From a virus (lineage: Duplodnaviria; Caudoviricetes), in the IMG/VR virus record IMGVR_UViG_3300032212_000061, positions 1-39,351 of that record: DNA of 39,351 nt; one strand, given 5' to 3'. The position numbers and the translations under genes were made by a program. The notes beneath the pieces are model-generated. The model saw only the letters and a program-made list of their open reading frames with translations. It did no database searches and had not been told where the DNA came from. Below are positions 75 through 39,351 of the stretch, piece after piece (positions within the stretch are counted from its first letter, which is position 1; each line of letters opens with the position of its first letter).

Positions 75-114
75 GGCGAGTTAGCAAAGCGGTTATGCAC
101 TGGATTGCAAATCC
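75..114 (+). pseudogene. 5' half of host tRNA-Cys(GCA), interrupted at the anticodon arm by the prophage (attL)
   Basis: GGCGAGT-TA-GCA-AAGCGGTTA-TGC-A-CTGGA-TTGCAAA-TCC aligns with gammaproteobacterial tRNA-Cys; the following sequence has no TTCGA T-loop, acceptor 3' strand or CCA. Confidence 0.92.
102..114. other. att core GGATTGCAAATCC (attL)
   Basis: 13 bp shared by the tRNA anticodon arm and 39253-39265; identity begins exactly here; dyad GGAT-N5-ATCC. Confidence 0.88.
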
Positions 115-151
115 TGCCACTCCCACACATCACTCTTCCCAATTCCTTATT

Positions 152-164
152 TATCAACAAGTTA
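152..164 (+). promoter_or_regulatory. IHF binding site in P' arm
   Basis: TATCAACAAGTTA matches WATCAANNNNTTR; near-identical inverted copy at 39224-39236. Confidence 0.75.
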
Positions 165-213
165 CGTTTTTTAATATCGCGTTTTTTGGGTTAAAAACAG
201 CCTGAAAGAGCCT

Positions 214-242
214 CTTGCCGCCCGAAAAAGCGGCCTTGCCAC
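214..242 (+). promoter_or_regulatory. Candidate integrase arm-type sites (CTTGCCRC x2)
   Basis: CTTGCCGC 214-221 and CTTGCCAC 235-242, 21 bp apart; inverted copy GCGGCAAG at 39211-39218 in the other arm. Confidence 0.5.
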
Positions 243-251
243 CCCTCCATG

Positions 252-280
252 TTGCGTTTTTCCATGTAGCTGAGTAATAT
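252..280 (+). promoter_or_regulatory. Integrase promoter
   Basis: TTGCGT-17 bp-TAATAT, overlapped by direct repeats TCCATGTTGC (246-255) and TCCATGTAGC (261-270). Confidence 0.55.
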
Positions 281-309
281 GAGCGCATTAAAGCAAAGAG
301 AATGATTGC

Positions 310-1446
310 ATGTCTAAGCGTATTCGCGGTAACAAGATCCAGTACACCATTAAGAATAAGAAGTTTTTAAAAAAACCTATTTACCTGACTTTCGATATTG
401 ATCAGGAAGATGAAGGCGATGATTATTATAGTCGTTTAAAAAAATTGGTTGCTGTTGGTATTGTTCCAGAGGAATATTCATCGAGTGATCAGCCTGAAAT
501 AATTAGTGAAATATTTATCAGTTATAAGAAGTACGAAAACATTAAGCCAGAAGATGTTGCACTGTTAAATACGTGCGATAAACAGTTTGGGCAGTTGCAA
601 TCTAAATTGATTGATTATAATTGGGTGGAAACTTGGGTTCACGAGCTGAAGGTAGTCAGAAAACTCGCCCCTGGTACCATTAGAAAATATGTAGGTGCAT
701 TGGCACGCTGTTTTGATTGGGCTTATAAAAAATCCTATGTTGTGGCTAATCCGTTTCGGATGCTTAAAAAGGGTTATTCAACATACACGAGCTATGAGAA
801 AAAATTAACTGGTGGCGGCAAAGAGGATGAATCAAGAGAACGCAGACTTGAATCAGGAGAAGAGGAAAAGGTAAGAACAATTTTGTCCGGTGAAAAAGTT
901 GAAGGAAGACAAAGGCCCATTGTTGCTAAGCACCAAGCCGCAGTTGAATTTTTATTTGTGTTGGCTTTAGAGTCTGCAATGCGACTTAGAGAAATGTTTA
1001 CGCTGTACGATGGGCAGTTTGATTTAAAAAGCAAAACAGTCTTCCTTGAAAAAACAAAAAATGGAAGTAAGCGGCAAGTGCCGTTAACCTCTGTTGCTAT
1101 TCAAGCTTATAAAAATTACAAGAAAAGCGTGAAGAAACAAACAGGGGGGATGGAGGGATATAACATTGATAAGATTTTATTTCCGTTTTGGAATGGTGTT
1201 CTCACAAAAAAAGAATTAGATAAAACTTCAAATAAATTATCGAAAAAGTACACGTCGATTTTCGAGGCTGCTGATATGGGAGATTTTAATTTCCATGATT
1301 TACGACATGAAGCAACAAGTCGTTTATTTGAAAAAACTACATTAAGTGAATTTAAGATTGCAAAAATTACTGGCCATAGCAACATGAAGACGCTTGCGCG
1401 TTATGCGAATTTAAGAGGCTCAAACTTGGCTGATGAATTGTGGTAA
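310..1446 (+). CDS. int: Tyrosine recombinase / phage integrase
   Basis: Catalytic motifs AMRLRE, KTKNG, FHDLRH, TGH, RYAN; adjacent to att. Confidence 0.96.
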   Translation: MSKRIRGNKIQYTIKNKKFLKKPIYLTFDIDQEDEGDDYYSRLKKLVAVGIVPEEYSSSDQPEIISEIFISYKKYENIKPEDVALLNTCDKQFGQLQSKLIDYNWVETWVHELKVVRKLAPGTIRKYVGALARCFDWAYKKSYVVANPFRMLKKGYSTYTSYEKKLTGGGKEDESRERRLESGEEEKVRTILSGEKVEGRQRPIVAKHQAAVEFLFVLALESAMRLREMFTLYDGQFDLKSKTVFLEKTKNGSKRQVPLTSVAIQAYKNYKKSVKKQTGGMEGYNIDKILFPFWNGVLTKKELDKTSNKLSKKYTSIFEAADMGDFNFHDLRHEATSRLFEKTTLSEFKIAKITGHSNMKTLARYANLRGSNLADELW

Positions 1447-1740
1447 GTCTGGAAGAGCAGGTTTAGGGTTTCTTCTGCTATTAGAGCGTTTCACTGGCTC
1501 ACTCGGTATCACTGTTATAGCTGGTCTATTCTTAGCGGTCATTTCTTCTTTTCTTCGCTTGGTTTGCTCTTGGATCTCTTTGCGTAACCATTTACGAAGT
1601 TCTGACTCTAAAAAAACCCAACCACGTCCAATTTTTGCGGCAGGTATTTCACCTTTTGCAGCCATTTCTTGAAGCGTGTTTGAATGTACATTTAAGTATT
1701 TACTTGCGCCTTCAATATCGTATGTAATTTGGTTGTTCAT
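1420..1740 (-). CDS. xis: Excisionase-like HTH (HTH_17/MerR-type) protein
   Basis: YDIEGASKYLNVHSNTL...GEIPAAKIGRGWVF...ELRKW pattern; last gene of the left operon, convergent with int. Confidence 0.85.
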   Translation of the reverse strand: MNNQITYDIEGASKYLNVHSNTLQEMAAKGEIPAAKIGRGWVFLESELRKWLRKEIQEQTKRRKEEMTAKNRPAITVIPSEPVKRSNSRRNPKPALPDLPQFISQV

Positions 1741-1741
1741 C

Positions 1742-3013
1742 TTATGCTCTCATTTGTGCAGCATTAACTATATTTGCTTTAATAATTGCAGCGGCAATAA
1801 CCGGACTAACGCTGTTACCACACATTCTGACTTGCGCAACTTTGGTTAGTTTTTTATTTTTATAAATGGGATCTATTATGTACTCATCAGGAAAACCTTG
1901 AGCGCGATAGAGTTCACGCGGCGTTAGCATACGCATGAGAATATCATTAATTTTGTAGTTTTGTTCTGATACTGTAATTAAACCAAAACGATCTCGTGAT
2001 GTAACAGTGTGCATCGGGTCGCTAAGTTGAACGGATTGATCTGTTCCGTAGTATTTTATTAAGAATCCAGTTACCAAGGCAAAATGACCACCTTTTACTT
2101 GAGCGCAAATTGTTCTTAACGGTTCATCGATAGGCATATTTCTTTGTGATGAACCATTTGCATGCTCTGTAATAAATGGAACAACAAAAGGGTTCTTTGC
2201 TTTTAATACATATCGATCTAAACCGTTAGCAATTCGAGTCATTGTTTTTTCTGCTAAAGGTCTGCGCACGTTGAATTGTTTTGCTTCTTCTTTATTTAAG
2301 AATATAGAGCTACCTGGTACAGTCCAATCAATACAATCTGCTGCTGTATTATAAGGTTTTAAACCTTTATCTTTTCCGTGAGTATCTTCTGGCCAAACAA
2401 TAGGCTGGTTATCGCACCGAGCAATTAAAAATAATCTTTTTCTGATGGTGGGTGCACCAAAATCACATGCGCGAAGTTCGCGCCATTCAACTTGATACCC
2501 TAATTTTTCAAAGTCGCGCACAAAACGTCGAAACGATAATCCTTTGCGAACAGGACAGGGTTTATTGTTATCAAGTAACGGCCCCCAATCTTGAAATTCT
2601 TCAACATTCTCTAAAACAATAACGCGAGGTTTAACAAGCTTAGCCCACTTTGTAGCAACTCTCGCTAAACCTCTTACTTTTTTATCTGCAGGTTTACCAC
2701 CTTTTGCTTTAGAGAAATGCTTACAATCAGGACTAAACCAAGCAAGACCAACAGGCTTGCCTTTGCATACCTCGATAGGATCAACTTCAAAAACATCGGA
2801 TACATAATGTTTTGTTGTTGGGTGGTTTGCTTCATGCATAGCAATCGCTTCTGGATCATGATTGATTGCAATATCAACTGAGCGACCAAGCGCCTGTTCT
2901 ATTCCCATGCTTGCACCGCCACCACCTGCAAAATTATCTATAATAATTTCATCGTCTAGTGACAGCCTTAATTGTGGTGGTCTTTTCCAGTTGAATGGTT
3001 TTATATTTTTCAT
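1742..3013 (-). CDS. DNA (cytosine-5) methyltransferase
   Basis: Motif I FAGGGG, motif IV SPDC, motif VI ENV, motif VIII RKR, motif X GNSV. Confidence 0.95.
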   Translation of the reverse strand: MKNIKPFNWKRPPQLRLSLDDEIIIDNFAGGGGASMGIEQALGRSVDIAINHDPEAIAMHEANHPTTKHYVSDVFEVDPIEVCKGKPVGLAWFSPDCKHFSKAKGGKPADKKVRGLARVATKWAKLVKPRVIVLENVEEFQDWGPLLDNNKPCPVRKGLSFRRFVRDFEKLGYQVEWRELRACDFGAPTIRKRLFLIARCDNQPIVWPEDTHGKDKGLKPYNTAADCIDWTVPGSSIFLNKEEAKQFNVRRPLAEKTMTRIANGLDRYVLKAKNPFVVPFITEHANGSSQRNMPIDEPLRTICAQVKGGHFALVTGFLIKYYGTDQSVQLSDPMHTVTSRDRFGLITVSEQNYKINDILMRMLTPRELYRAQGFPDEYIIDPIYKNKKLTKVAQVRMCGNSVSPVIAAAIIKANIVNAAQMRA

Positions 3014-3033
3014 TTTTACCTTATAAAATAGGC

Positions 3034-3091
3034 GGCTTCACTCAATCCCTCGAAACGCAGCGCCTCGGTTTTATCTGGATTAAGTGAAGCC
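3034..3091 (-). promoter_or_regulatory. 15-bp stem-loop upstream of the methyltransferase
   Basis: On the minus-strand RNA GGCUUCACUUAAUCC pairs fully with GGAUUGAGUGAAGCC (one G-U); 28-nt loop. Confidence 0.65.
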
Positions 3092-3100
3092 ATTAACTTT

Positions 3101-3397
3101 TTATAGTTCTAACTGTTTAAATATTTCTTCGTCCGTCATTTCGTGACGCATGAACATGATTTTTTGCGATTGCTGATCTTCCAAGCCTTCAGCAATAAAC
3201 TGTAAAAAATCCATTGGCACGAGTGTCCACGCTTCATCTTCTTCATGCCATGCAAACAGATAAGGGTATTTATCTGTTTTGTAATGTGAGCAAAGTGAAT
3301 GATGATGTGCTCCGGTTCTGTCTTGGTGTGATACTGGCCAAGCTGCGCAGTGGCATGCAACTTTTGCATTTAATTGAATTACGTTATTTTTGCTCAT
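3101..3397 (-). CDS. Hypothetical protein with Cys/His cluster
   Basis: Tightly packed in left operon; CHC...HHHSLC. Confidence 0.7.
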   Translation of the reverse strand: MSKNNVIQLNAKVACHCAAWPVSHQDRTGAHHHSLCSHYKTDKYPYLFAWHEEDEAWTLVPMDFLQFIAEGLEDQQSQKIMFMRHEMTDEEIFKQLEL

Positions 3398-3778
3398 TTA
3401 TACAACCGCTCTTTTATTTAAGTCTTGTAATAAAGCATTAAGCTTAGGTTGCTTACCTTGAAGCCGTTCTTCTTGGTAAAGCTTTTCTAGCTTTTCCCAA
3501 TTTTCAATAATATTTTTCCACACGCGGCCTAGTTTTTTTAATTTGTATAACTGTTCGCGTGCACCGGTTACACCAACCAAGAGAAGGTGACACGTTCTAA
3601 AGTCATCGGCATTTTTTGGTACATGAACGCAGAAGTTTTTCTTGAAGATGACTTTGCGAGTTACACCTAGCAACGTTAGTGCAATTGTTTCTGCGGCTTT
3701 ACTTTTTTCACCTTTGCAAAGCCATAGCAGTATGTCGCGCTCGAAGTCGGTAAGTTGTTTTTGTGGTTGTGCGTTCAT
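3398..3778 (-). CDS. Hypothetical phage protein
   Basis: Abuts both neighbours in the left operon. Confidence 0.75.
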   Translation of the reverse strand: MNAQPQKQLTDFERDILLWLCKGEKSKAAETIALTLLGVTRKVIFKKNFCVHVPKNADDFRTCHLLLVGVTGAREQLYKLKKLGRVWKNIIENWEKLEKLYQEERLQGKQPKLNALLQDLNKRAVV

Positions 3779-3779
3779 G

Positions 3780-4085
3780 TTAGATACCTATGGCGTATTG
3801 AATGTCGTGTTTATCGATGTTTGATTGATGGCATTTACTGCACAATCTGTTTCCTACTCCATACGATAAAAAGTTGTCTTTGCATTTCAGGCAGCTTCGC
3901 GTTTCCGCCTCGGGTGATTTTGGTGAGACAATTTTCATTTGAGATTTCATTAAGTAAACTTTGTTATCAACCGCTTGTTTTGTGCGGCCTAATATTCGTG
4001 CAATATCTACTGCCTGATATTTAAGCTTTCTCATTTGTATGAGTTTTCTTTCTTCTTGGGCTGTCCATGGGTGATTATGCGACAT
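3780..4085 (-). CDS. Myb/GcrA-like HTH with C-terminal zinc ribbon
   Basis: WTAQEERKL...IARILGRTKQAV; CLKC...RLCSKC; AAGGA RBS. Confidence 0.75.
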   Translation of the reverse strand: MSHNHPWTAQEERKLIQMRKLKYQAVDIARILGRTKQAVDNKVYLMKSQMKIVSPKSPEAETRSCLKCKDNFLSYGVGNRLCSKCHQSNIDKHDIQYAIGI

Positions 4086-4251
4086 GAAGATTGTCCTTTG
4101 GTGTTGTTAGAAGGAGAGGAAACGCCACTTTGCAGCCTTCGCTTAGGTGGCGTAAGTAGATTTCTCGGCGTTTGGCGTACAAATCTAACCGTTTTTGGTT
4201 GTCGCCTTTCTGAGCCGTTATTTGGTGCTCAACTTGATTTTGAGTACTCAT
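4075..4251 (-). CDS. 58-aa basic protein, first gene of the pL operon (not in ORF track)
   Basis: Hand translation MSTQNQVEHQITAQKGDNQKRLDLYAKRREIYLRHLSEGCKVAFPLLLTTPKDNLHVA; RBS AAGGGGA; stop overlaps the next gene start. Confidence 0.7.
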   Translation of the reverse strand: MSTQNQVEHQITAQKGDNQKRLDLYAKRREIYLRHLSEGCKVAFPLLLTTPKDNLHVA

Positions 4252-4283
4252 AGAATCTTCCCTTAACCTGATAAAGTGAGGAA

Positions 4284-5858: not shown

Positions 5859-5864
5859 TCCAAT

Positions 5865-23598: not shown

Positions 23599-24591
23599 AT
23601 GCAAAATACACGAGTCGGTTCAGGCGCAACACGAATGATGATGTCGCTAATGGGTGGCAGTGATGCAATTGAAGAAAAAAGTTTTGCCGATGCATTAAAT
23701 GCAAAAATGAATTTTGCTGCAAATCATGCAAGAGCCAATAAATTAAATTCTGAAGCCGCATTAAATACAGATCGATTGGAAAATATGGATACTGGCCGTG
23801 AGCAGTTTATGCAAGGGGCAACCAATTTAACGCAACCTCAGTTAGACATAATGAATGCTTTTATGAAAAGCGGTCAATATCAACAGCAAGACGATGGTCC
23901 ACCAACAGCGCAAGGTGATGTTTCCATGATGGCGATTGAAAAGCCTGAATGGGTAACGCCAGAAGTAACAAATAAATATGGTCGTGCGCGTATGGTTAGC
24001 GGTGCCAATATGATGGGTACCGGCAAATCAAATGCTGAGCAAATTATTAATGCATTGCTCTCCGGTGCAAATTTAAGCCGACAAGACCAGATGATTGAAG
24101 GCACTTTAAACCCTGAAGTGGTTGCACCGGCCATGGCTGCAACAGCCGGTAAGCCGACTTATAACGTTACCTCAAGCGGTATTGGTTACAAGCCTTATGG
24201 TGGTGCTGAAGATATCGATGATACAACCTTTATTGATAACGCCAACATTAATGCAGCGGCAAAAATAAATGCCGCGTTTATGCGTAATAACATTAATGGT
24301 GGCCAGTTACCCGCAGAAGCCAAAATGGTCGAATTCTATATGGACAAAGACTATCCAAAAGAGAAAGCCGTTGAAATGGCGAGAAACCGCAAAAATACAC
24401 CGTTACACATGATTGCCGCAGAGCTTTATCAAGAAGGGGTTAAAAACCTAGCCTTAAACCGTGAAGCCGTTGATTGGAGCCAAGAACAAAAAGAAATGTT
24501 TGTTCAAGATCAAGTAATAAGAACAATGCTATTCTTACAAAACAATAAAGATAAGTTTAGTGGCTCGGATGATCCATTGGGGATTCGTTAA
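23599..24591 (+). CDS. Internal virion / DNA ejection protein
   Basis: AGGAG RBS; position; C-terminal DDPLGIR coupled (TAATG) to the giant gene. Confidence 0.7.
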   Translation: MQNTRVGSGATRMMMSLMGGSDAIEEKSFADALNAKMNFAANHARANKLNSEAALNTDRLENMDTGREQFMQGATNLTQPQLDIMNAFMKSGQYQQQDDGPPTAQGDVSMMAIEKPEWVTPEVTNKYGRARMVSGANMMGTGKSNAEQIINALLSGANLSRQDQMIEGTLNPEVVAPAMAATAGKPTYNVTSSGIGYKPYGGAEDIDDTTFIDNANINAAAKINAAFMRNNINGGQLPAEAKMVEFYMDKDYPKEKAVEMARNRKNTPLHMIAAELYQEGVKNLALNREAVDWSQEQKEMFVQDQVIRTMLFLQNNKDKFSGSDDPLGIR

Positions 24592-27500
24592 TGTTGTTGT
24601 CTGATTTTCGTTTAAAAAACCCTCAATACAATGATATGGACGATGGCGCATTAACAACGGCGCTTCATAAAAAATATTATTCAGATGTTGATTTTAATGA
24701 GTTCAGTCAAAGCATTGGTTATGAAGCGCAGCCAGAAAATGCGGCAAATGATATTGTGAGTGCGTTTCAAGGTGTTGTTAATGAAGGTGTTAATAATCCT
24801 TTATTAAACCAAAAACAAAGCGTTGTTGATTATCAAAACCCGATTGAATCTGAAACATTAAATATTCGTGGTACCGACATTCAAACAGGTGAGCAATTCC
24901 CTGTTATAAGCAACAATAAAAACATATTGCGTGATATCGCAGAACCTAATTGGCGTGAAAATCAGTTAGTAGAATCGATTGATCAAATGGCCCCTGGTAC
25001 CAGAAAACCATCCGGTATGTACCCTAGTGAGAATAAGTCAGATTTACGGATCTCGTTAGAGAATCTTTTTGGTGAACGCGGCCAAGTTACACCAGAATCA
25101 AATGCCGAAGACATGGTGCATGCAGCCGCACAAATGAATGCAGGTCGTGGTGAAACCGCTAAAGAATATCTTGAAAATACCGGCCAAAGAACGGGCGTAT
25201 TAACGCGTACAGCAAAAGACGTTGCCTCGGGTGCCGTTTCAACAGCTGAAGGTATGCTGGGTTATGTTGCACGTATGACAGATAGCAACGGCATGCGTGT
25301 TGCTCAAGATGAAATGAGTAATAAAGCACATGAGCTTATGCCAGCTAATCCGCAATTTCTTGATGAGTTAGCCGCGGGGTTTGGTTCTACTGCAACGTTT
25401 TTTGTTCCTGGTCTTGGTGTAATGAAAGGCGCACAAGCCGTTGCTAAAGTATCTCCAACAATGGGTGCATGGCTTGGTTCAGGTGCAGCAGCGGGGATGG
25501 AAGCTGCAACGGAATCCGGTGCAGTTTATACAGAATTAAGAAACAGTGGCATGAGTCACAATGAATCCGCTCAAAAAGCGGATGCTGTATTTTGGGCCAA
25601 TGCTGCGTTAGTGAGTGTAACGAACAAGTTTGGTCTGTTTAATGAATCGGGTGGCCAGCTTGCTAGGCGTTCTCTTGCAGCGGTTAATGAGGGTGTTTTA
25701 CAGGAAGGCCCACAACAAGCAATTAGCAATATTGCAACCGGTAAAGATTGGGTTGAAGGTGTACCCAAATCGATGGCCATTGGTTCTATTGTCGGTACTA
25801 CGCTTGCAGGTAATACGCGCAGCAAAAAAGAAGAAGTGGGTGCTGAGCTTGATAAATCCATTGAAAATACGGCAGTCAATCAAGACGCAGTGGATGCCGC
25901 TATTCGTGATCAGTTAAACCCCAATAACCAAGCTGAAAATAATATTAATACCAGTGAACCCCCAGCAGTACAAATTGCTAACGCTTTAAAAGCCTCAGTA
26001 CAACAACCAAAATCAACAAGCCCGTATGCCAATAATGATATGGGGTCAAATGTGGTTGAGTTATCTAAACAAAAGAATACCCCTCAAAATAATGCTGTGA
26101 AACCTTCTGAGGTAGCAGCAGAAGAGAAAAAAGAAACAAAGCCTTCACGCATTAAAGAATTGCTTCAATTGCAATCTAACCTACAGGAAAACGGTTACAA
26201 CGATAAAGCCGAGCTTGATACTAAGTTACGTGAAATAAAATCACTCGCTGATGAAGTGGCTTATGGCGAAGTTGAGCGTGAAGATTATCAGCAAGCCGTG
26301 GACGTTAAAAAATGGGCGGTTGAGTTTGGGCATAGTACCAATAAAAAAGATAACCAGGTAATCCATCAAAATGATGTTAAAAAAGAAACTAACACGTTAC
26401 AGCAAAGCTCTGAGCAGAGCGAAATGGAGTTTAAATCACCACAAAGCATTAATGAAGAATTATCGAGTAACGAAGTTAAAGGTGAGGCTAAAAAAGAAAA
26501 GAACAAGAAAAAATCAAAAGATAAACCAGTTGAAAATATTGCTAACAATAAAGAACGATCACCAAATGAAGAAGAAATGAATTACCCTGCAACCAACGAT
26601 GCAAGAATTTTAAAGGCTAGAGAAAACCAGAGAGGTAAGCAGCCTCCTAAATCTGAAAACTATAAAAATGATGATGGTTCAGAAGACTATAGTTCATATT
26701 TAAAAGACTTTAATGCAAATCGTGCAGAATCATGGATGGCAGAGTCAGCGGGTATTGTTGAAGCAACTAGCTATGAACGCTATAAGTTACATGAAGCTGC
26801 TGATGCGCAGAAATTGGCATTACAAAGTAAAATCGGAGCACCATTAAAGCACGATGGAAAATTATTTATGGCGGGTGCTTGGGGTGCCATGGGGAATAAT
26901 GATGTTCCAGTTCGCAGAATTTATCCGCTTGAAGAATATACCGGTAAAACTCATACAGAAGCCAACGGCCCGTATGAAGGTAGAATAGTTAAGCATGGTA
27001 AAAAATCTTACGTAATTGGCGAACAATGGCTTTTAACATCAAAAGAAGGTACCAAAACCTCAAACGAAAAGAATGATGAACATGAGCCAGAATCATCCAA
27101 ACCTAAAGATAGTGATACGAAAAGAAAAAACAATCCTCCTTCTGATTTAGACAGATGGGAAGCTCACGATAGTCTTATGGATGATATGCGTGATGGCAAA
27201 CTAACACTAAAACAATACCGTGATAGTTTTGAAGAGTTAGCAGCAAACCGTGAAACGGTAATAGAAGAGCTATCAAAAGAAACAAAGAAAACGCTATTAA
27301 GCCGCATGGGTGCCATGGATGCTCAGCGGTATAAAAGCGAAAAGAAAGCAAGTGTAGTTGAGTCTTTATATGTCGATATGTTGAAAGATTATATACCACC
27401 TAGCAGTGATGGTGGTGGCATGTATAGTTATTCCCCTAAAGTTGGTGGCGATTTCATACAAAGCATGATTGATGTGGTTCGTGAGAAAGTTGAAAGCGTG

Positions 27501-30500
27501 ACTGATAAAAAGTTAAACGCGTATGCAGAAAGAATAGCTGATCAACAAAAAGAAAATGATAAAGAACGTGAGGAATATGAAAAAGGATTAGAAGATCCTC
27601 AAACAGCTGAAGATTATCAGCGGTTGATTTATGTGCGTGCTCAGGAAATAGGCGAGGGCGCTACCTTTAACGAAGCACGAATGACGCTAACCTCAAAACA
27701 GCGTAAACATTTTGATGATTTAGTGGCTGAAGATACGCGTACAAAAAGAGAAGAAAACCGAAAAGAAGAACGCTCACGCGTAAATGCAGCGGGTGAGCGT
27801 ACTGAAACAGAAATTATTGCAACAGAGCATACGCGTGACCATTATCCTCTATGGGTGGTTAAGCCAGCGGATAGAGTTGAGAAAGACGTTTATCGTGAAT
27901 GGTTAACTGCTGCCAAAAAAATGGGCGGTTGGTATTCTCGTTACAATAAAGGTGGCGCGATTGCTGGTTTTCAATTTAAAGATAAAGAGTCGGCTGAAGC
28001 GTTCCAAGATTATGTGACTGACGGTAATACTGAAGGTGTAAAGGAAAAAGCAAAAGCACGCCGTAATGCATTTGAAGATGACCGTTCACAGTCTGCCGTT
28101 GAACGCTTAAATGAAATGGCTGATAGGCTAGAAGAGCGTGCCAATGAAAAGTTAAACCAAGATAGAAAAACCAACACGCAAAGACGCGCTTCAATGGCTG
28201 CGCGTGCTGAGGCGGCAGCTGAAAACGACAAAGCAATTGCAATCACCATGAGAAATATTGCTAATTCAATCGAGTCTGGTAACGCTAAGTTTTTGGACAG
28301 AGTTAGAACAAAGGCGCAAGTTGAAATGATGACTTCGGCTGTTAATGTGGGTAAAGATGCTCAGTTGCGTGAAAAATACCCAAGTTATAGTGATTATGAA
28401 AAGCATAAGGGTGAAGCGCCTGATGAAGAAACTATTGATTATGTTTCATGGCCATTTTATACCGCATACCGTTCTGACTTAGCCAGGTTAGGGCGACAAG
28501 CATTAGAAACTGATGGTTTAAAAATGATCGGCCAGAAAATAATGAAAGTGGCTGACGATGTTACTGAGTCATACTTAAAATATGCTAAAGAAAACTTACA
28601 TGATGTTGCTGTTTTCCAATCTAAAAACGGTGCAAAAGCAGCGTTTAAATCTAAAAAAATGGCCACTGAATCTATATTGCGTTCAGGTTTTCGTGGTCAA
28701 GCAATCGTTCTACCTGTTAAGCGTGGTGAAAATTTAATTATTTTAAGTCCTTCTGAAGCTATGAAGCGCGGCGTATGGGATGGAGATAATGACAAACGTA
28801 TTTCATTAAACCCCAGCTTCATTGAAAGTTTAATCGGTAAAGCAAGAAGAAAAAATAAAATAGATGTGCCTTGGCAGTTCGAGAGCGCGTATGAAAAACG
28901 TACTCGTCTAAAAAGCATGGGGATAGAAACACCAGCTGAATATCGATCTGCATTACGTGAGTTTTTAGAGTCGCAAGAATTAGCAGCTGAACCCGATAAA
29001 ATAAAAGAAATGGAACGTAAAATGATAGGCCGTAAAAAAGACGGTCTTGATTTTTTCCCTACACCAGAAAGCACAGCTGATGAAATGGTGGATATAGCTG
29101 ATATAAAAGAAGGTATGAGTGTTTTAGAGCCTTCTGCTGGTATGGGTCATATTGCTGAACAAATTCGAGCGGCTGAAATTGAACCTGATGTGGTCGAGTT
29201 TTCCGGTGATCGGCGCGAACTATTGGAGGCAAAAGGGTTTAACGTTGTAGCAAGCGACTTTTTATCGGTTAGTGAAAAGTATGATCGAATAATAATGAAC
29301 CCTCCTTTTTCTGAGCGCCGTGATGCTGAGCATGTTCAACATGCTTATGACTTACTTAAACCTGATGGCCGCATTGTTGCCATTATGGGTGAAGGTGTAT
29401 TTTTTGGAAAAGATAAAAAAGCAAAAGCTTTTCGTGAGTGGCTTGATAAGGTTGGCGGCAGTGAAGAAAAGCTTGAGGAAGGCACTTTTAACGATCCAAA
29501 TTTACCGGTTAACACCAGCGTAAATGCCCGGTTAGTTGTTATAGATAAATCGAGTAATGCATCATTTTCCAAAGACAAGGCCGCTTCAAGCGGTCTTTCT
29601 GTTTCTGAGGTTGAGAAAATCATTGCACCGGTTGTTTTAAAGTGGGGCGATAAGGCACCAAAGATTGAAGTAGTGGACAGCATTGAAGATGTTCCCGAGC
29701 ATATTGTTGATGCTAGTGAAGATGGCATGGGTGATGTGAATGCATTGCATTATGGTGCTGAAGAACAGGTTTATTTGATTGCCAGTAAGCTTGCAGATAA
29801 AGAGCATGTTTTAAGCAAGCTTGCACATGAGGCGGTTGGCCATCATTCGTTTGAAGATATGATGGGTGATGATTTGCAGCAAGTACTTGAGCGTGTTCAG
29901 TGGCTTAAAAAATCGGGTGACAAAAAACTCAATGCAATCTCTGAAGAAGTTTTTAAACGTTATGGCCGTTTGGACAAGGTGACTGAGGCAAAAGAGATTG
30001 TGGCCTTGGTTGCTGAAAAAGGGGTTAGTCATCCTCTATTAACAAAAGTGGTGGCCGCTATTCGCCGGTTCTTGCGTAAGCTGGGGATTAGTCTTAAATG
30101 GACTAAAACAGAGCTTGATGCTTTGGTTGTAAAGGCCGCGAAGAACTTAGAAAAAAATCGTTCTAAAAAAGAAAAGAAGGCACGTAAAGAAAAAGTGAAG
30201 CACTTCTCCCGTGAAGATAATGAGCGTTATTTTTCGCGTGAACCTGAAGAAATTTTAAATGATATTAACGAAGAAGCGGGTAAGGTGCCAACGTATGACG
30301 AGGTTAAAGACCTCGTTAAGAATGCCAACACTAAAACACGCCCAATGTGGTTGAAGTTGCTCACTCGCCGCCATTTGGCCGATATCGGTAACGATGTTTT
30401 ACCGACTATTAAAACGTATGTTTTAACCGCTGAGAAAATGGATGCCTTTAGAAATGAATTGGTTGCAGAGTCTTCAGCTGTTGCGAAGGATTGGACGAAG

Positions 30501-33188
30501 TGGGCCACTCAGCCTGAAAACGTGAAAGCCGCTGATACCATGATTAACATTATGCATGAGGCCACTATTGCCGGTGTTGATCCCGCTGAGTCCTATAACG
30601 CGGTTATTGACCTTAAAACCGTTAAAGAAGAAGTGAATAAACAGTTTCGCTTCGCTCGTTCAATGCCTGGGGATGCCAGCAAATATATTTCTAAAGTGAA
30701 TGAGATTAAAGAGCGTGCAGGATTTGAGAAAAAGCGTGCAGCAGCTTATCCAGAATTAAAGCGTAAGTTTGATGCTTTACCTAAAAAAGCAAAAGAGATT
30801 TATAAAGAAGTACGCGATCACTATGTAGAGCGCATGAATGCCACCGAGCAAGCTTTGCTTGATAAGATTGATAGAGCTGAGTTAAGTGCTAAAGAAAAAG
30901 ATCAATATAAAGTTGAAATGCGGCACCAGTTTGAATCGGTTCGTATCGAGGGGCCATATTTTCCGCTTGCGCGTTTCGGTGATTATTGGGCGAAAGTTTT
31001 AATTCCTACTGAGTGGCAGAAAAAATACTCTATCCTTGATAAAGGTTTTACCAGCAAAGAGTCTGAGCATGGCAAGTGGGCAGTAACACACAAAGACAGC
31101 AAGCATGCGATTGAAACCTTTGAAACAAAAGAGGACGCTATTAAGTGGGCTTCAGATAAGTCCATGGACTATGAGTTTTATATGTTTGAAAAAATTAAAC
31201 ATAGAAACAACTTAGTGAAGAAAAAAGAAGCGCAAGGGTTTAAGGTTAAAACCGGTTATAAAATCGAAAAGGGGTCGCGTGAGGATATCGTTAGCGAAGG
31301 TTTTATTTCTAACGTACTTGGCGTGGTTGATAAAACCCTTTCGGGTACCATGGCTGATAAGGCGAAGGATGAAATATACCAGCTGTTTTTAAACACCTTA
31401 CCTGATATGTCGATGCGTAAAAGTTTTATTCATCGTCAAAAGAAAGAAGGTTTTACGCATGATGCCTTGCGTGCTTTTTCTAATCACAATTTTCATGGTG
31501 CCTACCAGTTAAGTAAGTTGAAGTATGCTGATGTATTGCAAGCCCAGCTTGAAAACATGGAAGAGCAAGCGCGTGATATGTCCGGTGAAAAGGCTGATAA
31601 AGCTGCTCAAATTCTTAATGAAACGAAAAAGCGTCACGATTGGGCTATGAACCCAATGGGGGCAAGCTGGGCAAACAACGTAACGCAATTTAATTTTGTT
31701 TGGTACCTGGGCGCAACACCAGCTGCGGCCATTGTGAATATGAGTCAAACGGCTATGGTGGCGTTCCCATCGATGGGCGCAAAGTTTGGTTTTACTAAAG
31801 CCGGTCAAGAATTACTTAAAGCAACAAAAGAATTTGCGAGTAACCGTATTGAACTTAAAGACGGTTTATTCAGTATTGAAGGTGCTTTAAAGGGTGATGA
31901 GCTTAGAGCTTATCGACATTTAGTGGATACCGGTATTATCGATAAAACCTTGGCGCATGATTTGGCGGCTATGTCTGAAACACCGAGCGCAATTTATAGC
32001 CCTAAAAAAGATAAAGTGATGGGTGCAGTGAGTTATGCGTTTCATCATGCAGAACGTTTTAACCGTGAAGTTACATCGATTGCAACATACCGTTTAGCAC
32101 GCAAAAAAGGCATGGGGCATGATGCAGCTGTTCAAGCTGCTTATGACATGGTGGATGCAACACATTTTAATTATTCCAATGCCAACAAAGCCGCGTTTAT
32201 GCAGCATGATATTGCAAAAGTGGCGTTTATCTTTAAGCAATATTCGTTGAATATGATTTACCTTATGGCACGCTCAACCTATCAATCAGTTAAAGGTGAA
32301 AGCGCAGAAGTTAAAAAAGAAGCGCGTAAAAAGTTGGGCGGTATTTTGTTTATGGCGTATTTATTCGTGGGTTATGACGGTATGCCATGGCTCCCATTTG
32401 GTTTAATTGATTTGATTTTAGAATCAATTTGGGATGATGAAGATGAGCCGTATGATATTGAAGCAGAACGCCGCAATTTTTTAACGGAGCATTTAGGTTC
32501 AACGTGGTCTGATATTTTAACGGTAGGGCCAGTGGAAACAGCAACCGGTGCCGGTATCAGTGGACGGTTAAGTTTAAAGGATTTATGGTTGCGTTCTTCT
32601 GATCGTGAAATGGAAGCTAAAGATGATTATGTTCAGTTTATCACTGAATCATTAGGCCCGACTTTTGCAATTGGTTATAACTGGTCAAGAGGTATCGATA
32701 TGATGCAGCAAGGCCATGTTCAGCGTGGTATTGAAACCATGCTACCTAAAGGCATTAAGGATCCAATGAAGTCATACCGCTATGTTGACGAAGGGGTGAA
32801 CACGTTTAAAGGGGATCCCATTATTCAAGATGTATCTAAGTGGGAGGCGTTCTTGCAGTTCATAGGTTTTTCAGTGGCACGCGCTAACAAGCAATATGAT
32901 GCAAAGTCTGCCATTAAAAATACAGAGTCACGCTTAAATAACCGGCGCAAACTTTTAATGAATCAGTTAGCAATTGCGATTCATACCGGCGATAAGTCAT
33001 GGCATAAAGATATTTTAAAAGATATCGGCCAATACAATCGCAAAAACCCACGTAACGCTATTACCCCTGACGGTATTTATCGTTCATTACAAATGCGTGC
33101 ACGTACCAGTGCTATGACGAAAAACGGCGTGTATTTAAGAAAGAACATGCAACACCTTAGAAATAAAGGAAAATTTGCTGATGAGTAA
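24591..33188 (+). CDS. Large polyvalent ejection protein with N6-adenine DNA methyltransferase, zincin (HExxH-like) and PLxRFG domains
   Basis: 2865 aa; DFFPTP, LEPSAGMG (SAM), MNPPF (catalytic); HEAVGH; YFPLARFG; N-terminal FR...PQY.D.DD. Confidence 0.88.
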   Translation: MLLSDFRLKNPQYNDMDDGALTTALHKKYYSDVDFNEFSQSIGYEAQPENAANDIVSAFQGVVNEGVNNPLLNQKQSVVDYQNPIESETLNIRGTDIQTGEQFPVISNNKNILRDIAEPNWRENQLVESIDQMAPGTRKPSGMYPSENKSDLRISLENLFGERGQVTPESNAEDMVHAAAQMNAGRGETAKEYLENTGQRTGVLTRTAKDVASGAVSTAEGMLGYVARMTDSNGMRVAQDEMSNKAHELMPANPQFLDELAAGFGSTATFFVPGLGVMKGAQAVAKVSPTMGAWLGSGAAAGMEAATESGAVYTELRNSGMSHNESAQKADAVFWANAALVSVTNKFGLFNESGGQLARRSLAAVNEGVLQEGPQQAISNIATGKDWVEGVPKSMAIGSIVGTTLAGNTRSKKEEVGAELDKSIENTAVNQDAVDAAIRDQLNPNNQAENNINTSEPPAVQIANALKASVQQPKSTSPYANNDMGSNVVELSKQKNTPQNNAVKPSEVAAEEKKETKPSRIKELLQLQSNLQENGYNDKAELDTKLREIKSLADEVAYGEVEREDYQQAVDVKKWAVEFGHSTNKKDNQVIHQNDVKKETNTLQQSSEQSEMEFKSPQSINEELSSNEVKGEAKKEKNKKKSKDKPVENIANNKERSPNEEEMNYPATNDARILKARENQRGKQPPKSENYKNDDGSEDYSSYLKDFNANRAESWMAESAGIVEATSYERYKLHEAADAQKLALQSKIGAPLKHDGKLFMAGAWGAMGNNDVPVRRIYPLEEYTGKTHTEANGPYEGRIVKHGKKSYVIGEQWLLTSKEGTKTSNEKNDEHEPESSKPKDSDTKRKNNPPSDLDRWEAHDSLMDDMRDGKLTLKQYRDSFEELAANRETVIEELSKETKKTLLSRMGAMDAQRYKSEKKASVVESLYVDMLKDYIPPSSDGGGMYSYSPKVGGDFIQSMIDVVREKVESVTDKKLNAYAERIADQQKENDKEREEYEKGLEDPQTAEDYQRLIYVRAQEIGEGATFNEARMTLTSKQRKHFDDLVAEDTRTKREENRKEERSRVNAAGERTETEIIATEHTRDHYPLWVVKPADRVEKDVYREWLTAAKKMGGWYSRYNKGGAIAGFQFKDKESAEAFQDYVTDGNTEGVKEKAKARRNAFEDDRSQSAVERLNEMADRLEERANEKLNQDRKTNTQRRASMAARAEAAAENDKAIAITMRNIANSIESGNAKFLDRVRTKAQVEMMTSAVNVGKDAQLREKYPSYSDYEKHKGEAPDEETIDYVSWPFYTAYRSDLARLGRQALETDGLKMIGQKIMKVADDVTESYLKYAKENLHDVAVFQSKNGAKAAFKSKKMATESILRSGFRGQAIVLPVKRGENLIILSPSEAMKRGVWDGDNDKRISLNPSFIESLIGKARRKNKIDVPWQFESAYEKRTRLKSMGIETPAEYRSALREFLESQELAAEPDKIKEMERKMIGRKKDGLDFFPTPESTADEMVDIADIKEGMSVLEPSAGMGHIAEQIRAAEIEPDVVEFSGDRRELLEAKGFNVVASDFLSVSEKYDRIIMNPPFSERRDAEHVQHAYDLLKPDGRIVAIMGEGVFFGKDKKAKAFREWLDKVGGSEEKLEEGTFNDPNLPVNTSVNARLVVIDKSSNASFSKDKAASSGLSVSEVEKIIAPVVLKWGDKAPKIEVVDSIEDVPEHIVDASEDGMGDVNALHYGAEEQVYLIASKLADKEHVLSKLAHEAVGHHSFEDMMGDDLQQVLERVQWLKKSGDKKLNAISEEVFKRYGRLDKVTEAKEIVALVAEKGVSHPLLTKVVAAIRRFLRKLGISLKWTKTELDALVVKAAKNLEKNRSKKEKKARKEKVKHFSREDNERYFSREPEEILNDINEEAGKVPTYDEVKDLVKNANTKTRPMWLKLLTRRHLADIGNDVLPTIKTYVLTAEKMDAFRNELVAESSAVAKDWTKWATQPENVKAADTMINIMHEATIAGVDPAESYNAVIDLKTVKEEVNKQFRFARSMPGDASKYISKVNEIKERAGFEKKRAAAYPELKRKFDALPKKAKEIYKEVRDHYVERMNATEQALLDKIDRAELSAKEKDQYKVEMRHQFESVRIEGPYFPLARFGDYWAKVLIPTEWQKKYSILDKGFTSKESEHGKWAVTHKDSKHAIETFETKEDAIKWASDKSMDYEFYMFEKIKHRNNLVKKKEAQGFKVKTGYKIEKGSREDIVSEGFISNVLGVVDKTLSGTMADKAKDEIYQLFLNTLPDMSMRKSFIHRQKKEGFTHDALRAFSNHNFHGAYQLSKLKYADVLQAQLENMEEQARDMSGEKADKAAQILNETKKRHDWAMNPMGASWANNVTQFNFVWYLGATPAAAIVNMSQTAMVAFPSMGAKFGFTKAGQELLKATKEFASNRIELKDGLFSIEGALKGDELRAYRHLVDTGIIDKTLAHDLAAMSETPSAIYSPKKDKVMGAVSYAFHHAERFNREVTSIATYRLARKKGMGHDAAVQAAYDMVDATHFNYSNANKAAFMQHDIAKVAFIFKQYSLNMIYLMARSTYQSVKGESAEVKKEARKKLGGILFMAYLFVGYDGMPWLPFGLIDLILESIWDDEDEPYDIEAERRNFLTEHLGSTWSDILTVGPVETATGAGISGRLSLKDLWLRSSDREMEAKDDYVQFITESLGPTFAIGYNWSRGIDMMQQGHVQRGIETMLPKGIKDPMKSYRYVDEGVNTFKGDPIIQDVSKWEAFLQFIGFSVARANKQYDAKSAIKNTESRLNNRRKLLMNQLAIAIHTGDKSWHKDILKDIGQYNRKNPRNAITPDGIYRSLQMRARTSAMTKNGVYLRKNMQHLRNKGKFADE

Positions 33189-35835: not shown

Positions 35836-35849
35836 ATCAGAGAATAACT

Positions 35850-36284
35850 ATGGCCGATAATCAAGCAACCATATACCGCTACAACAGCGGCGACCAAGGA
35901 ACCCGAGGCATCATAAGTGCTTCGGGTTTTTTTTGTCATACGCTAGAGCTTCCCTGGAGAAACAACCGGCAAAATATCAGCTGTATTCCAGCGGGTGAAT
36001 ATGAATGTTTGTTTGTGAAAATTAAACGCCGTATTGGAGGCCGTAAAGATTTGTATTGGTTAAAGCTGGTCGAAGGTCGCAGTGGCGTTCTCATGCATGC
36101 AGGGGTTTATGCGGGTGATAAGTCGAAAGGATTTAAGTCTAACGTGCTGGGGTGTATTGAGCTTGGCCATAGCATTGGAAAATTAAAAGGGCAGCAAGCT
36201 ATTTTTCGTTCTCGTGAATGTGTTAATGATTTTATTAATCACATGAACAAAGAACCATTCAAATTAATTGTGAGGGATTTTTAA
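35850..36284 (+). CDS. DUF5675-family protein (putative endolysin)
   Basis: TLELPW.NN...SCIPAG.Y...R.G..MH.G...GCI.LG signature; next to a holin-like gene. Confidence 0.78.
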   Translation: MADNQATIYRYNSGDQGTRGIISASGFFCHTLELPWRNNRQNISCIPAGEYECLFVKIKRRIGGRKDLYWLKLVEGRSGVLMHAGVYAGDKSKGFKSNVLGCIELGHSIGKLKGQQAIFRSRECVNDFINHMNKEPFKLIVRDF

Positions 36285-36285
36285 A

Positions 36286-36849
36286 ATGGGAATCATGGAT
36301 CTTATAGGTGGCGTATTGTCTGGTGGTGCTACCGGTTTAATTGGCTTGGGTGTAAATGCCTTTATGTCGTTTAAAAAAGAAAAAGAAGAAAACCGGCACA
36401 AAGAATCGATGGTTACACTTAATACTGAGGCCATGAAAGCTGAAGCCACGCTAGAAATTGAGAAAGTTGAAATAGAAGGTAACATTCAACAAAACATTCA
36501 AGCCAGCAAGGATGCAGCAGCAGGTTTAGCGGCTTCGTATGAGCATGATAGTGCGGCATATTACAAAGGCAAGCAAGGCAAAGTGGCTCATTTCTTTTTT
36601 GGTGTCGTTGATTTTTGTCGCGGCATGATACGCCCATCACTAACTGTTTATTTAGTTGTACTTACTAGCTTGATGTATTGGGCCATGGTTGACTTGGTTG
36701 ATGGCATGGGTACTGGCATTAATGATGCAAAGGCGGTAGAAATAATCTTAATGATAGTGGCAATGGTGCTTTATTTAACATCAACCTGCGTTACCTGGTG
36801 GTTTGGTGGTCGCCAGCTTGAAAAGAACGACTTGGCGAACAAAAAATAA
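36286..36849 (+). CDS. Membrane protein, 3TM holin-like (GTA holin type)
   Basis: Hydrophobic N-terminus, coiled coil, R..IRP..T, two TMs, WWFGGR. Confidence 0.72.
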   Translation: MGIMDLIGGVLSGGATGLIGLGVNAFMSFKKEKEENRHKESMVTLNTEAMKAEATLEIEKVEIEGNIQQNIQASKDAAAGLAASYEHDSAAYYKGKQGKVAHFFFGVVDFCRGMIRPSLTVYLVVLTSLMYWAMVDLVDGMGTGINDAKAVEIILMIVAMVLYLTSTCVTWWFGGRQLEKNDLANKK

Positions 36850-36870
36850 AATTACTGCATTTTATTTTTT
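36841..36870. terminator. AT-only inverted repeat between convergent genes
   Basis: AAAAAATAAAAT-TACTGC-ATTTTATTTTTT. Confidence 0.35.
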
Positions 36871-37567
36871 ATTTGGCTAGAACTAAAAGTGAATAACCGC
36901 CTAGTATTCGCACAGTTAAATCCTGATTTATCGAAAACGCAAGCTTTCTAGGCAGTTTTAATAAATTGGCTTTCCATCCAAGATTCGGCAATTCTAATCG
37001 CCCAGCAGTATATGAATAATCAATAATCTCGTACCCAGTATCTTTTAGCGTTTCCAGCGCAGTTTCCTTTGTAAAGTAATGTATGTGACCAACAGATTTC
37101 CTACCTTTAATTATTGGAGAAGATCGGAGAACTGTTTGAACAGACAAATCAAGTGGGATATGGAATATTTTATATTTAGCTTTTTGTTTCAGTTTTCTTA
37201 GAAAATCAAAGTAGTTTTCGACGTGTTCAAAAATATCGATTGCCATTGCTATATCAAAAAAAGTATCTGGTTCATCAAGTAAATTTGCAAGCTTAAACGA
37301 TAAATTGGCATTCGATTTTTTATTGCAAATCTCAAACGCTTGAGGGGATATTTCATACCCAAAATATTTTTTATCGTCTGTGTTTTTTTCTGACATTTGT
37401 TTAAGTATTTCTCCAGCTCCACAACCTATCTCGCAAATACTTTGGGGGGGTAGAGAATTTTTGTTAATGATGTTTTCTATCTGTTTTGCCTTCCACGGCG
37501 AGTCCTCTTCATGCCACAAGGGGTTGTTATCAAGGTAAGTTCCATCTTCATAGATTTGTGTCATCAT
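36869..37567 (-). CDS. Class I SAM-dependent methyltransferase (non-DNA, glycan-locus type) moron
   Basis: EIGCGAG motif I, GYEIS, FD......DIFEHV, GHIHYFT; no NPP(Y/F) or PC catalytic motif. Confidence 0.88.
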   Translation of the reverse strand: MMTQIYEDGTYLDNNPLWHEEDSPWKAKQIENIINKNSLPPQSICEIGCGAGEILKQMSEKNTDDKKYFGYEISPQAFEICNKKSNANLSFKLANLLDEPDTFFDIAMAIDIFEHVENYFDFLRKLKQKAKYKIFHIPLDLSVQTVLRSSPIIKGRKSVGHIHYFTKETALETLKDTGYEIIDYSYTAGRLELPNLGWKANLLKLPRKLAFSINQDLTVRILGGYSLLVLAK

Positions 37568-37749
37568 TTACTCCGAGCATTTATGCACAACAAGGGTGTC
37601 TCGGGTGATCTTAAAGGAAAATACCCACAAATTCATCATAAATGAAGAATAAGTGGGGTTTTATAAATTATAAAATCAACTAGATCTTTCAATCACCTTC
37701 CCTTAAAGTTGGCCTAAAAGTGAAAGATGGGTAAGGTATTCATTTGAAT

Positions 37750-38004
37750 TTAAAGCTTTATGAGCAGCTTATTATGAGCATCATTGGTATTTATACTCGA
37801 TATCATTTCTTGCTCCATTGCCTTAACCGGTAATGTTCGTCGGTTTTGCTCGGTTGACACACTATAAAGCCATATACCTAAAACCAAAAGTATAATGGTA
37901 TTTAGTTTTGCGAGGTTACTACTATTAAAGTGATCTGCATGGTTATTTTTACCATTATTATTTCCAAGCACCTTATTTAGAATATCTATATCTTCACTTA
38001 ACAT
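37750..38004 (-). CDS. Small single-TM membrane protein
   Basis: AGGGAG RBS; TIILLVLGIWLY hydrophobic stretch; candidate promoter TTGTCT-16 bp-TAATAT upstream. Confidence 0.65.
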   Translation of the reverse strand: MLSEDIDILNKVLGNNNGKNNHADHFNSSNLAKLNTIILLVLGIWLYSVSTEQNRRTLPVKAMEQEMISSINTNDAHNKLLIKL

Positions 38005-38137
38005 CTTTATCTCCCTGTTTTATTTTTTTTTCAACTCAATCTTGAGCTGTTTGCAATCCCAATAATTGCAAGGGAGAGTTATATTACTGCTCAAAAAAAC
38101 AAAGACAACAAGTTTTAGTAAGAAATTATTAAATAGT

Positions 38138-38182
38138 GCCGAGGCGGCACCGGCATGGCCGAGGCGGCACTGGCATGGCCGA
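38138..38182. repeat. GC-rich 20-bp tandem repeat (2.25 copies)
   Basis: GCCGAGGCGGCAC(C/T)GGCATG x2 + GCCGA. Confidence 0.9.
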
Positions 38183-38881
38183 TTACGCACAATTTATATC
38201 TGGGTCGGTTCCAATCGACAGATAATGCGGTTCACCGCCTATTTTAATCATTTGGATCATGATTTCTAGTTGATAGGTGCGACCATCTCGCTTTTTATGT
38301 GCCGTTAAAAACCGTATAGGGTCGCGTTCTTCGACTAACCCATCACGAATAGAATTAAAATCTTCCTTTGTCATCTTGTCTTTAATGTCTAAAACATGAA
38401 GTTTTTTAATTTCTGTACACGAATAACCTAGTCTAGTTCGCGCTTTCTTGCTTGCATGGACAAAATTAAACCCTCCATCTAAAACATAAAGCTCATCATC
38501 AGAGTCTTCCATAATTACATTATAAACATCGCTGCTAACTCGCCTGCTTAGTAGTTCGGCATTTAGTCGAATCAAAGCATCACCGTAAGCATTAAAAATC
38601 TCTTTGTTTACATCTTGGTAGTCATCAAGATAATTATTTTTGTAATATTCGTAAGTGTTACGAATAGCTGAATAGCCATGCTGCAAATGGATATAATTAA
38701 TACCAAAATGTTCAGCCAGCATTTTAACCTGGTCCATGCTTGGCACTAATTTGCCGCTTATCCATTTAGCAATCGTCGAAATATCTGCGTCACAAACTCT
38801 GGCAGCTTCAAGCCTACGCTCTTTGTCGTTACCAATAAGAACAGCAATTCTTTCTTGTAATGTATCGTTTTCAGTCTTCAT
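38183..38881 (-). CDS. XRE-HTH / PAS-domain transcriptional regulator
   Basis: N-term EAARVCDADISTIAKWISGKLVPS..V..LAEHFGI; C-term IMEDSDDELYVLD..FNFVHAS.KA...LGYS..E...HKKRDG..Y.LEI (PAS/PAC); ATG 38881 with GGTGG RBS. Confidence 0.88.
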   Translation of the reverse strand: MKTENDTLQERIAVLIGNDKERRLEAARVCDADISTIAKWISGKLVPSMDQVKMLAEHFGINYIHLQHGYSAIRNTYEYYKNNYLDDYQDVNKEIFNAYGDALIRLNAELLSRRVSSDVYNVIMEDSDDELYVLDGGFNFVHASKKARTRLGYSCTEIKKLHVLDIKDKMTKEDFNSIRDGLVEERDPIRFLTAHKKRDGRTYQLEIMIQMIKIGGEPHYLSIGTDPDINCA

Positions 38882-38962
38882 AACACCACCCAACAGACAA
38901 AAGTAATCCTGACCGAGCTTTCGGTAGTTTTCAGAAAATCTAGCTATAGGGGAGTGACTAAG

Positions 38963-38986
38963 ATTAACCGTCCATCCGTGGTTAAT
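38963..38986 (-). promoter_or_regulatory. GGA-loop hairpin (CsrA/RsmA-type site) in the HTH-PAS leader
   Basis: Minus-strand AUUAACC-ACGGAUGGAC-GGUUAAU. Confidence 0.5.
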
Positions 38987-39062
38987 TTGTATCTAAGTTT
39001 ACATCGTTTACACACACAATAAAACCGTCAATATATTGGTGCAGATGTTGATTTAATTCCCG

Positions 39063-39096
39063 TTGTTATTAATAGATTGTTTGTGTATTATCGCGC
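39063..39096 (+). promoter_or_regulatory. Stable-RNA-type promoter of phage tRNA
   Basis: TTGTTA-17 bp-TATTAT followed by GC-rich discriminator CGCGC. Confidence 0.72.
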
Positions 39097-39103
39097 TTCG
39101 GTT

Positions 39104-39180
39104 GGCGGGGTGTAGCTGAATGGTTAGGCCGCAGATTGCAAATCTGTTTTATGTCGGTTCGAATCCGATCCCCGCCTCCA
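39104..39180 (+). tRNA. Phage-encoded tRNA-Cys(GCA), 77 nt with encoded CCA
   Basis: Acceptor GGCGGGG/CCCCGCC, anticodon arm GCAGA-TTGCAAA-TCTGT, T arm GTCGG-TTCGAAT-CCGAT, discriminator U73 + CCA. Confidence 0.93.
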
Positions 39181-39223
39181 TTATCTTGCTTTTACAGGCT
39201 GTCAACAAAAGCGGCAAGCCTTG

Positions 39224-39236
39224 TAACTTATTGATA
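39224..39236 (-). promoter_or_regulatory. IHF binding site in P arm
   Basis: Reverse complement TATCAATAAGTTA matches WATCAANNNNTTR. Confidence 0.75.
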
Positions 39237-39252
39237 CTAATAATAATACAAC

Positions 39253-39351
39253 GGATTGCAAATCCTGCCACTCCCACACATCACTCTTCCCAATTCCTTA
39301 TTTATCAACAAGTTACGTTTTTTAATATCGCGTTTTTTGGGTTAAAAACAG
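39253..39351 (+). repeat. attP core + P' arm; 99-bp direct repeat, copy 2
   Basis: Identical to 102-200; flanked on both sides by phage sequence with IHF sites. Confidence 0.95.

Follow-up and report, generated by a model that had tools for sequence, protein, structure and literature searches.

A temperate phage that probably breaks the host tRNA-Cys gene on integration and replaces it with its own copy

In our study, the virus contig IMGVR_UViG_3300032212_000061 of IMG/VR (39,351 nucleotides, analysed whole and called the window below) was found to contain a temperate tailed phage joined at its left end to the 5' half of a host tRNA-Cys (GCA) gene, with a complete tRNA-Cys of its own beside its attachment site. 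The best explanation of the whole, to which we give a probability of about 0.7, is that integration breaks the host gene and the phage copy replaces it, as in tRNA-dependent lysogeny. A broken attL, an attP core without any tRNA half (a bare core), an intact phage tRNA and a link between bare cores and adjacent tRNA-Cys genes across the integrase family were observed. In the proposed mechanism, the tyrosine integrase would join the 13-bp attP core to the anticodon loop of the host gene. The attP carries neither gene half, so attL is broken, and a broken attR, made up of a non-tRNA arm followed by the host 3' half, is predicted as well. If the host possesses a single tRNA-Cys, the phage tRNA, presumably expressed in the lysogen from the promoter predicted in front of it and charged by the host cysteinyl-tRNA synthetase (CysRS), would likely be the only cysteine decoder of the lysogen and thus likely keeps it alive. 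The coordinates of the features are given in Table 1.

Table 1. Features of the attachment region and the integration module in the window.
Feature	Position	Strand	Basis or remark
Host chromosomal spacer upstream of tRNA-Cys	1..74	+	hairpin and T run (10-32), then TATAAT (47-52)
Host tRNA-Cys (GCA) 5' half at attL	75..114	+	acceptor 5' strand, D arm, anticodon loop
Common core, 13 bp, anticodon stem-loop, at attL	102..114	+	identical to 39253-39265
P' arm of attP	115..309	+	no tRNA 3' half; IHF-consensus site at 152
Tyrosine integrase, 378 aa	310..1446	+	PHROG 1, E 2.7e-29; PF00589; family context
Excisionase-like protein	1420..1740	-	PHROGs 66 and 1840
Predicted sigma-70 promoter of phage tRNA, facing attR	39063..39091	+	9/12 consensus match
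Complete phage tRNA-Cys (GCA)	39104..39180	+	ARAGORN, Rfam; U73, encoded CCA
P arm of attP	39181..39252	+	no tRNA 5' half; no terminator found
attP core	39253..39265	+	one run X1 contig bridges the core without differences
99-nt terminal repeat of 102-200	39253..39351	+	identical; identity ends exactly at the left edge of the core

The left end of the window was assigned to attL because it held the tRNA 5' half without its remainder, and the right end to attP because it held a bare core without the 5' half. Past position 114 the sequence was phage DNA, with neither a T arm nor an acceptor 3' strand, and tRNA-Cys was not rebuilt at attL. The phage tRNA-Cys was the one tRNA that ARAGORN and Rfam (scanned to E 1) detected in the window, and its T-loop was also the sole plus-strand tRNA-type T-loop in tRNA context. 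The core was the entire sequence common to phage and host. In the 27 nucleotides before the right-hand core, 9 of the 27 positions matched the host 5' half and no fold as a tRNA half was obtained; if the crossover lies in the core, attR therefore cannot be a tRNA. The phage tRNA was separated from the attP core by 72 nucleotides. An earlier note on this DNA had described a host 5' half (75–114) running into phage DNA, a P arm devoid of a tRNA 5' half and a complete, divergent tRNA-Cys ending 72 bp upstream of the core, and all three descriptions were confirmed. The displaced 3' fragment typical of canonical restoring integrators was absent from attP, and so was the tRNA 5' half of the 5'-end replacement type, in contrast to the locus L344 (1590–1640, minus strand), where an unrelated integrase was found with an attP containing a tRNA-Cys 5' half.

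The 99-nt terminal repeat is likely an assembler overlap at circle closure, in which case the assembly held both the host-to-phage join and the closed circle. The run X1 contig covered positions 38700–39351 without differences and then ran 7,301 letters past the window end. The single run in which the right end was present carries the label microbial mat metagenome and may be the source; no RNA data set was listed as containing the sequence. Sites matching the IHF consensus motif were found on both sides of the core (the P arm site lies on the minus strand at about 39224–39236), and these represented two of the six distinct sites in 39 kb. The spacer before the host tRNA was similar to the spacer between tRNA-Gly and tRNA-Cys of gammaproteobacteria, and like spacers were found in L570, L569, L575, L578 and G049; the promoter and terminator scan called neither its hairpin and T run nor its TATAAT. 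G049 was also considered as a case of a replaced tRNA, and turned out to be an ordinary Gly-Cys locus.

About 2,800 homologues of the integrase were found, the best at about 50%, and no direct relative was recovered by single-sequence patterns in viral contigs or by DNA in named phages. An alignment of 52 sequences was used to fetch 80 of the 576 confirmed viral loci (24 of 64 parts scanned) and 80 of 578 genome loci (10 of 64 parts scanned), together with two named phages. At a threshold of 180 bits and 300 aa, 94 integrase loci passed; 28 of them were without upstream DNA and 6 without a core, and the labels of two (L013 and L100) were corrected by hand. The targets of the family were the anticodon loops of tRNA-Cys (GCA) and tRNA-Val (UAC). 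The loci comprised 26 with an intact tRNA-Cys at attL, 15 with a Cys core followed by the 3' half (plus one truncated), 3 with bare Cys cores and 15 Val (UAC) sites. The host tRNA overlapped by attB in the window was tRNA-Cys, as read from attL, and its position agreed with the 26 relatives: it started at −235 from the integrase start, and the intact attL loci ranged from −212 to −269 with a median of −239. It would be surprising for a random chimera to combine the family core, the family distance, a Gly-Cys-like spacer and flanking IHF sites, as the assembled join does.

All three bare Cys cores (L024, L026 and L075) were accompanied by a complete tRNA-Cys on the same strand, 62–73 nucleotides upstream, whereas none of the 15 restoring attPs contained a full tRNA-Cys in its own locus (loci of 5.6–21 kb). 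The association gave a Fisher p of 0.001, with relatedness ignored. Six of the restoring-attP records were searched whole and gave a single core match each, the pattern being blind to recoded stems. A pattern scan of the whole collection added two further cases. L164 (L546) kept the bare core and the tRNA-Cys with the integrase reduced to a 36-aa remnant, and L529 contained a bare core and a tRNA with another core variant, another tRNA lineage and an integrase of 32% identity. All five bare-core relatives were in the free attP form. The survey of integrase homologues proposed in the earlier note thus gave the adjacent tRNA-Cys at every bare core of the family set and no second split tRNA-Cys at attL.

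Two sister phages, G955 and G956, were reached through the terminase, and both possessed other att modules; the tRNA therefore goes with the bare attP and not with the virion genes. G955 was similar over many blocks (67–78% at the nucleotide level), ended in a 3' half that restores another tRNA, and contained no tRNA gene; G956 adjoined an intact tRNA-Glu, and its right end was missing. In the integrase tree, the five bare-core integrases were placed in four positions and the best tree needed 4 changes, with weak support; a single bare-core clade was not rejected (AU p 0.215). In Massilia timonae (L108, 4572–12675) an integrase broken into three pieces was found behind an intact tRNA-Cys; the second tRNA-Cys of this locus, after the broken integrase, was divergent, with an anticodon arm without the core.

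The phage tRNA-Cys contained a perfect 7-bp acceptor stem and a 3-bp D stem, and the connector between them was of 4 nucleotides, not 2. The anticodon stem was recoded with respect to the host, with 11 of the 13 core bases kept. A scan of IMG/VR for this tRNA-Cys type gave 84 loci with 54 distinct sequences, most of which lie in tRNA arrays. The connector was UGNN in 48 of the 54 distinct sequences, of 3 nucleotides in five and of 2 nucleotides in one. In an alignment of 26 sequences (25 chosen from the 48, and the window), 98.8% of the cells were paired, and 13 of the 20 pairs were found to have two-sided changes, including all 7 acceptor pairs. Judged from these changes, the fold is under selection. 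We did not find the UGNN-connector fold in print, in a thin search of the literature. An invariant G-U first pair of the T stem was seen in the UGNN type (window 39104–39180; L415–L498).

Among named large phages, related genes were found in a T5-like phage (2-nt connector) and in Atu_ph07 (3 nt). The identity of the phage tRNA was 74–79% to Atu_ph07 and the two array members tested, and 69% to the T5-like gene. The replacement tRNAs of L024, L026, L075 and L164 were of the host type; this difference from the array-like tRNA of the window suggests that the replacement tRNAs were captured separately. An identity with selC* tRNA-Cys was rejected, as neither a long variable arm nor an 8/4 branch with the A51a bulge was found. 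A refolding to 8/4 (bulged U8, G9 with a T-stem U) was not distinguishable from 7/5 because the relevant positions never vary. A long variable region was seen in the phage tRNA-Cys genes of L291, L321, L334, L345 and L357. From its two extra nucleotides and its Rfam score of only 40.3 bits, the phage tRNA of the window could be taken for a passenger that functions poorly or is decaying, with unfit lysogens at this site; this is very improbable given the same connector across the viral sequences, the full acceptor pairing, the covariation and the intact U73, GCA and CCA.

Several points weigh against the replacement of the host gene by the phage tRNA. The host part of the window was only 101 nucleotides long, and neither the 26 Cys attL loci nor 119 viral tRNA-Cys 5'-half loci included another broken attL. 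The attR of this phage, or of any bare-core relative, was not found: searches of IMG/VR gave no bare-core attR, nor did those of 301 genomes from the family of G002, 201 from the order of G004 (12 chance matches) or 50 whole viral records, which yielded two restoring-type attR instead, and the two real matches in 121 metagenome loci (19 of 64 parts) were both attP forms (L026 and L164). None of the run X1 contig matches listed had a loose end that might represent attR, and contigs drop rare forms. The recovery of attR that the earlier note called for therefore failed in the run X1 contig and in the relatives. The identity of the phage tRNA to host-type tRNA-Cys genes was 64–73%, and the host CysRS may charge such a non-canonical tRNA poorly. 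The idea of an outward promoter (a lead rather than a result, see below) is weak where Cys sites are concerned. The host itself was not found: the host 5' half had no exact match in 401 class-wide genomes (one match at 1 mismatch), in 121 genomes or in a set of 81. A shorter pattern matched 6 of the 121, one copy each, and in the one viewed in full the acceptor differed from the host 5' half. The copy number of tRNA-Cys in the host is therefore a prior taken from the class.

The short host DNA, the attP form of the run X1 contig, the missing attR and a tRNA lineage known from the tRNA arrays of large phages would also fit a tip of attL that is a chimera or a dead-end integration, in a phage that is effectively lytic or extrachromosomal, with a tRNA used in lytic translation or as a defence against an anticodon nuclease. 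We consider this unlikely. The join was found exactly on the family core and at the family distance, the integrase, excisionase and repressor-like genes were intact, the sister phage G955 carried a restoring att without a tRNA, and nine large phage genes, with 6683 codons in all, contained only 36 for cysteine.

The host gene may also be broken in the presence of a second host tRNA-Cys, the phage copy then being a backup and not essential. No host genome was matched, and real duplicates of tRNA-Cys occur, as in the tandem Cys-Leu repeats of G147. Among 121 gammaproteobacterial genomes, however, a tRNA-Cys pattern gave matches in 108, and a single one in 105 of these (103 of 106 without the unpublished G044 and G146), and every bare-core phage found holds a tRNA-Cys in the same slot, which makes the backup quite improbable. 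We infer that the host is a gammaproteobacterium in the GTDB sense. At 29 gammaproteobacterial tRNA-Cys loci called by ARAGORN (one of 30 gave no call), tRNA-Gly was found before tRNA-Cys in 24 and tRNA-Leu (UAA) after it in 20.

The replacement of the host gene by the phage copy does not carry all the consequences that had been drawn from it. The toxin-free addiction put forward earlier would hold for an imprecise loss of the right end, and was overstated in general, since precise excision would rebuild attB and restore the host gene. The claim that the site is closed to rival tRNA-Cys integrators found no support: both the host 5' half and the complete 13-bp core remain in attL, where a rival of the restoring type would even be expected to rebuild the gene. 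The full core was also kept in the replacement tRNAs of L024, L026 and L164.

The phage tRNA had also been said to possess its own promoter. A sigma-70 match was indeed found in front of it (Table 1), as a prediction only: the scan gave 3 sites against 1.2 ± 1.0 in shuffles. A −10-like hexamer was present 146–161 nucleotides before the core in L024, L026, L075 and L164 also, and absent in L529. The promoter faces attR and no terminator was found between the phage tRNA and the attP core, so it may, by a weaker inference, also feed the tRNA-Leu (UAA) gene that usually follows tRNA-Cys. At the restoring att sites, a −10 box was found 60–100 nucleotides before the core in 7 of 25 (shuffle mean 1.7; 1 in 1000 as high), distributed as 2 of 18 Cys-type and 5 of 7 Val-type sites, two of the latter being near copies. 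These boxes faced attR, 67–85 nucleotides before the core, in L018, L073, L028, L035, L102, L161 and L162, and five of the seven were at 77–78 nucleotides. The fuller scenario is tentative and on balance doubtful: a gammaproteobacterial lysogen would decode all cysteine codons with a non-canonical tRNA from the large-phage pool, the family would have switched to break-and-replace several times, with at least three tRNA lineages in one slot at the attP edge, and the outward promoter would keep the host tRNA-Leu (UAA) on.

The phage genome was of about 40% G+C and contained an integrase, an excisionase, a DNA methyltransferase, repressor-like genes, a terminase, a portal, a capsid, a 2,865-aa polyvalent protein and a tail protein. 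The polyvalent protein (24591–33188, plus strand) included methyltransferase, LPD39 and DarB-like regions. A class I S-adenosylmethionine methyltransferase moron was found near attP (36869–37567, minus strand). Its match to a tRNA methyltransferase PHROG was weak (E 1.5e-6) and its Pfam domains were generic class I domains; it was not linked to the tRNA. A protein with helix-turn-helix and PAS domains (38183–38893, minus strand) was divergent from the tRNA promoter.

The break-and-replace idea is already known, and the present phage is likely a proteobacterial case of the strategy of mycobacterial phages. The reading of the earlier note was thus well supported by the anatomy and the family contrast, and its novelty was overstated. 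In PMC10865867 (2024), tRNA-dependent lysogeny is defined in actinobacteriophages, with genetic proof in mycobacteriophages. The systems described there are Fionnbharth (K4), clusters L, K6 and X and Gordonia CQ2/DL, with cores of 8–17 bp at Lys-UUU, Ile2 and Leu-CAA; Lactobacillus Lj965 is mentioned, and the reach beyond Actinobacteria is left open. Those systems share with the window a tyrosine integrase, a short core in a host tRNA gene, no rebuilt tRNA (in the window, as seen at attL), a phage tRNA of the same isotype and restoring close relatives without a tRNA. Here, by contrast, the isotype is Cys, the integrase family is proteobacterial, the non-canonical tRNA lies at the attP edge facing attR, and the case is known from sequence alone. 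Five of the seven features of tRNA-dependent lysogeny were found, namely a phage tyrosine integrase, attB in a host tRNA, a 13-bp core, no tRNA at attL and a phage tRNA-Cys (GCA); the window works like this system, and by these features is one, with the essentiality of the tRNA and the attR being predicted. Titles-level searches with few subscription journals gave no tRNA-dependent lysogeny at tRNA-Cys or in gammaproteobacteria, and supplements may hold cases.

Lo5R7ANS-like prophages of Sinorhizobium meliloti AK21 and RU11/001 are located at tRNA-Leu (UAG) according to PMC11476347, and these cases are cited in PMC12429752. They are likewise proteobacterial, with a tRNA gene split centrally, a divergent copy of the same isotype and evidence confined to sequence; they differ in belonging to Alphaproteobacteria, in the isotype and in that both junctions were seen, whereas attL only was seen here. 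The selC* tRNA-Cys with the 8/4 structure, as described in PMC5389517 and PMC7609411, shares a non-canonical fold, U73 and GCA. It has a long variable arm and the A51a bulge, whereas the phage tRNA has a 5-nt variable loop and, unlike selC*, its extra bases are between the acceptor and D stems.

The restoring rule for tRNA integrators (Islander class A, anticodon-centred) is stated in PMC4383910. Canonical anticodon-centred integrators, including the 15 attPs and 26 attLs of this family, have the same core, integrase family and geometry, but bring in the 3' half and rebuild the gene, and this phage does neither. Our study adds a broken attL at the family distance, the contrast between bare-core and restoring relatives and a non-canonical, conserved replacement tRNA-Cys. 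The broken junction concerns a new isotype and a proteobacterial integrase family, in which restoring and non-restoring members are built-in controls, so that the origin of the strategy becomes testable; in addition, an unusual phage tRNA-Cys fold is here open to a natural test in vivo. As the Islander signature needs an intact gene and a fragment, the phage points to a class of prophages that finders of islands by tRNA fragments likely miss.

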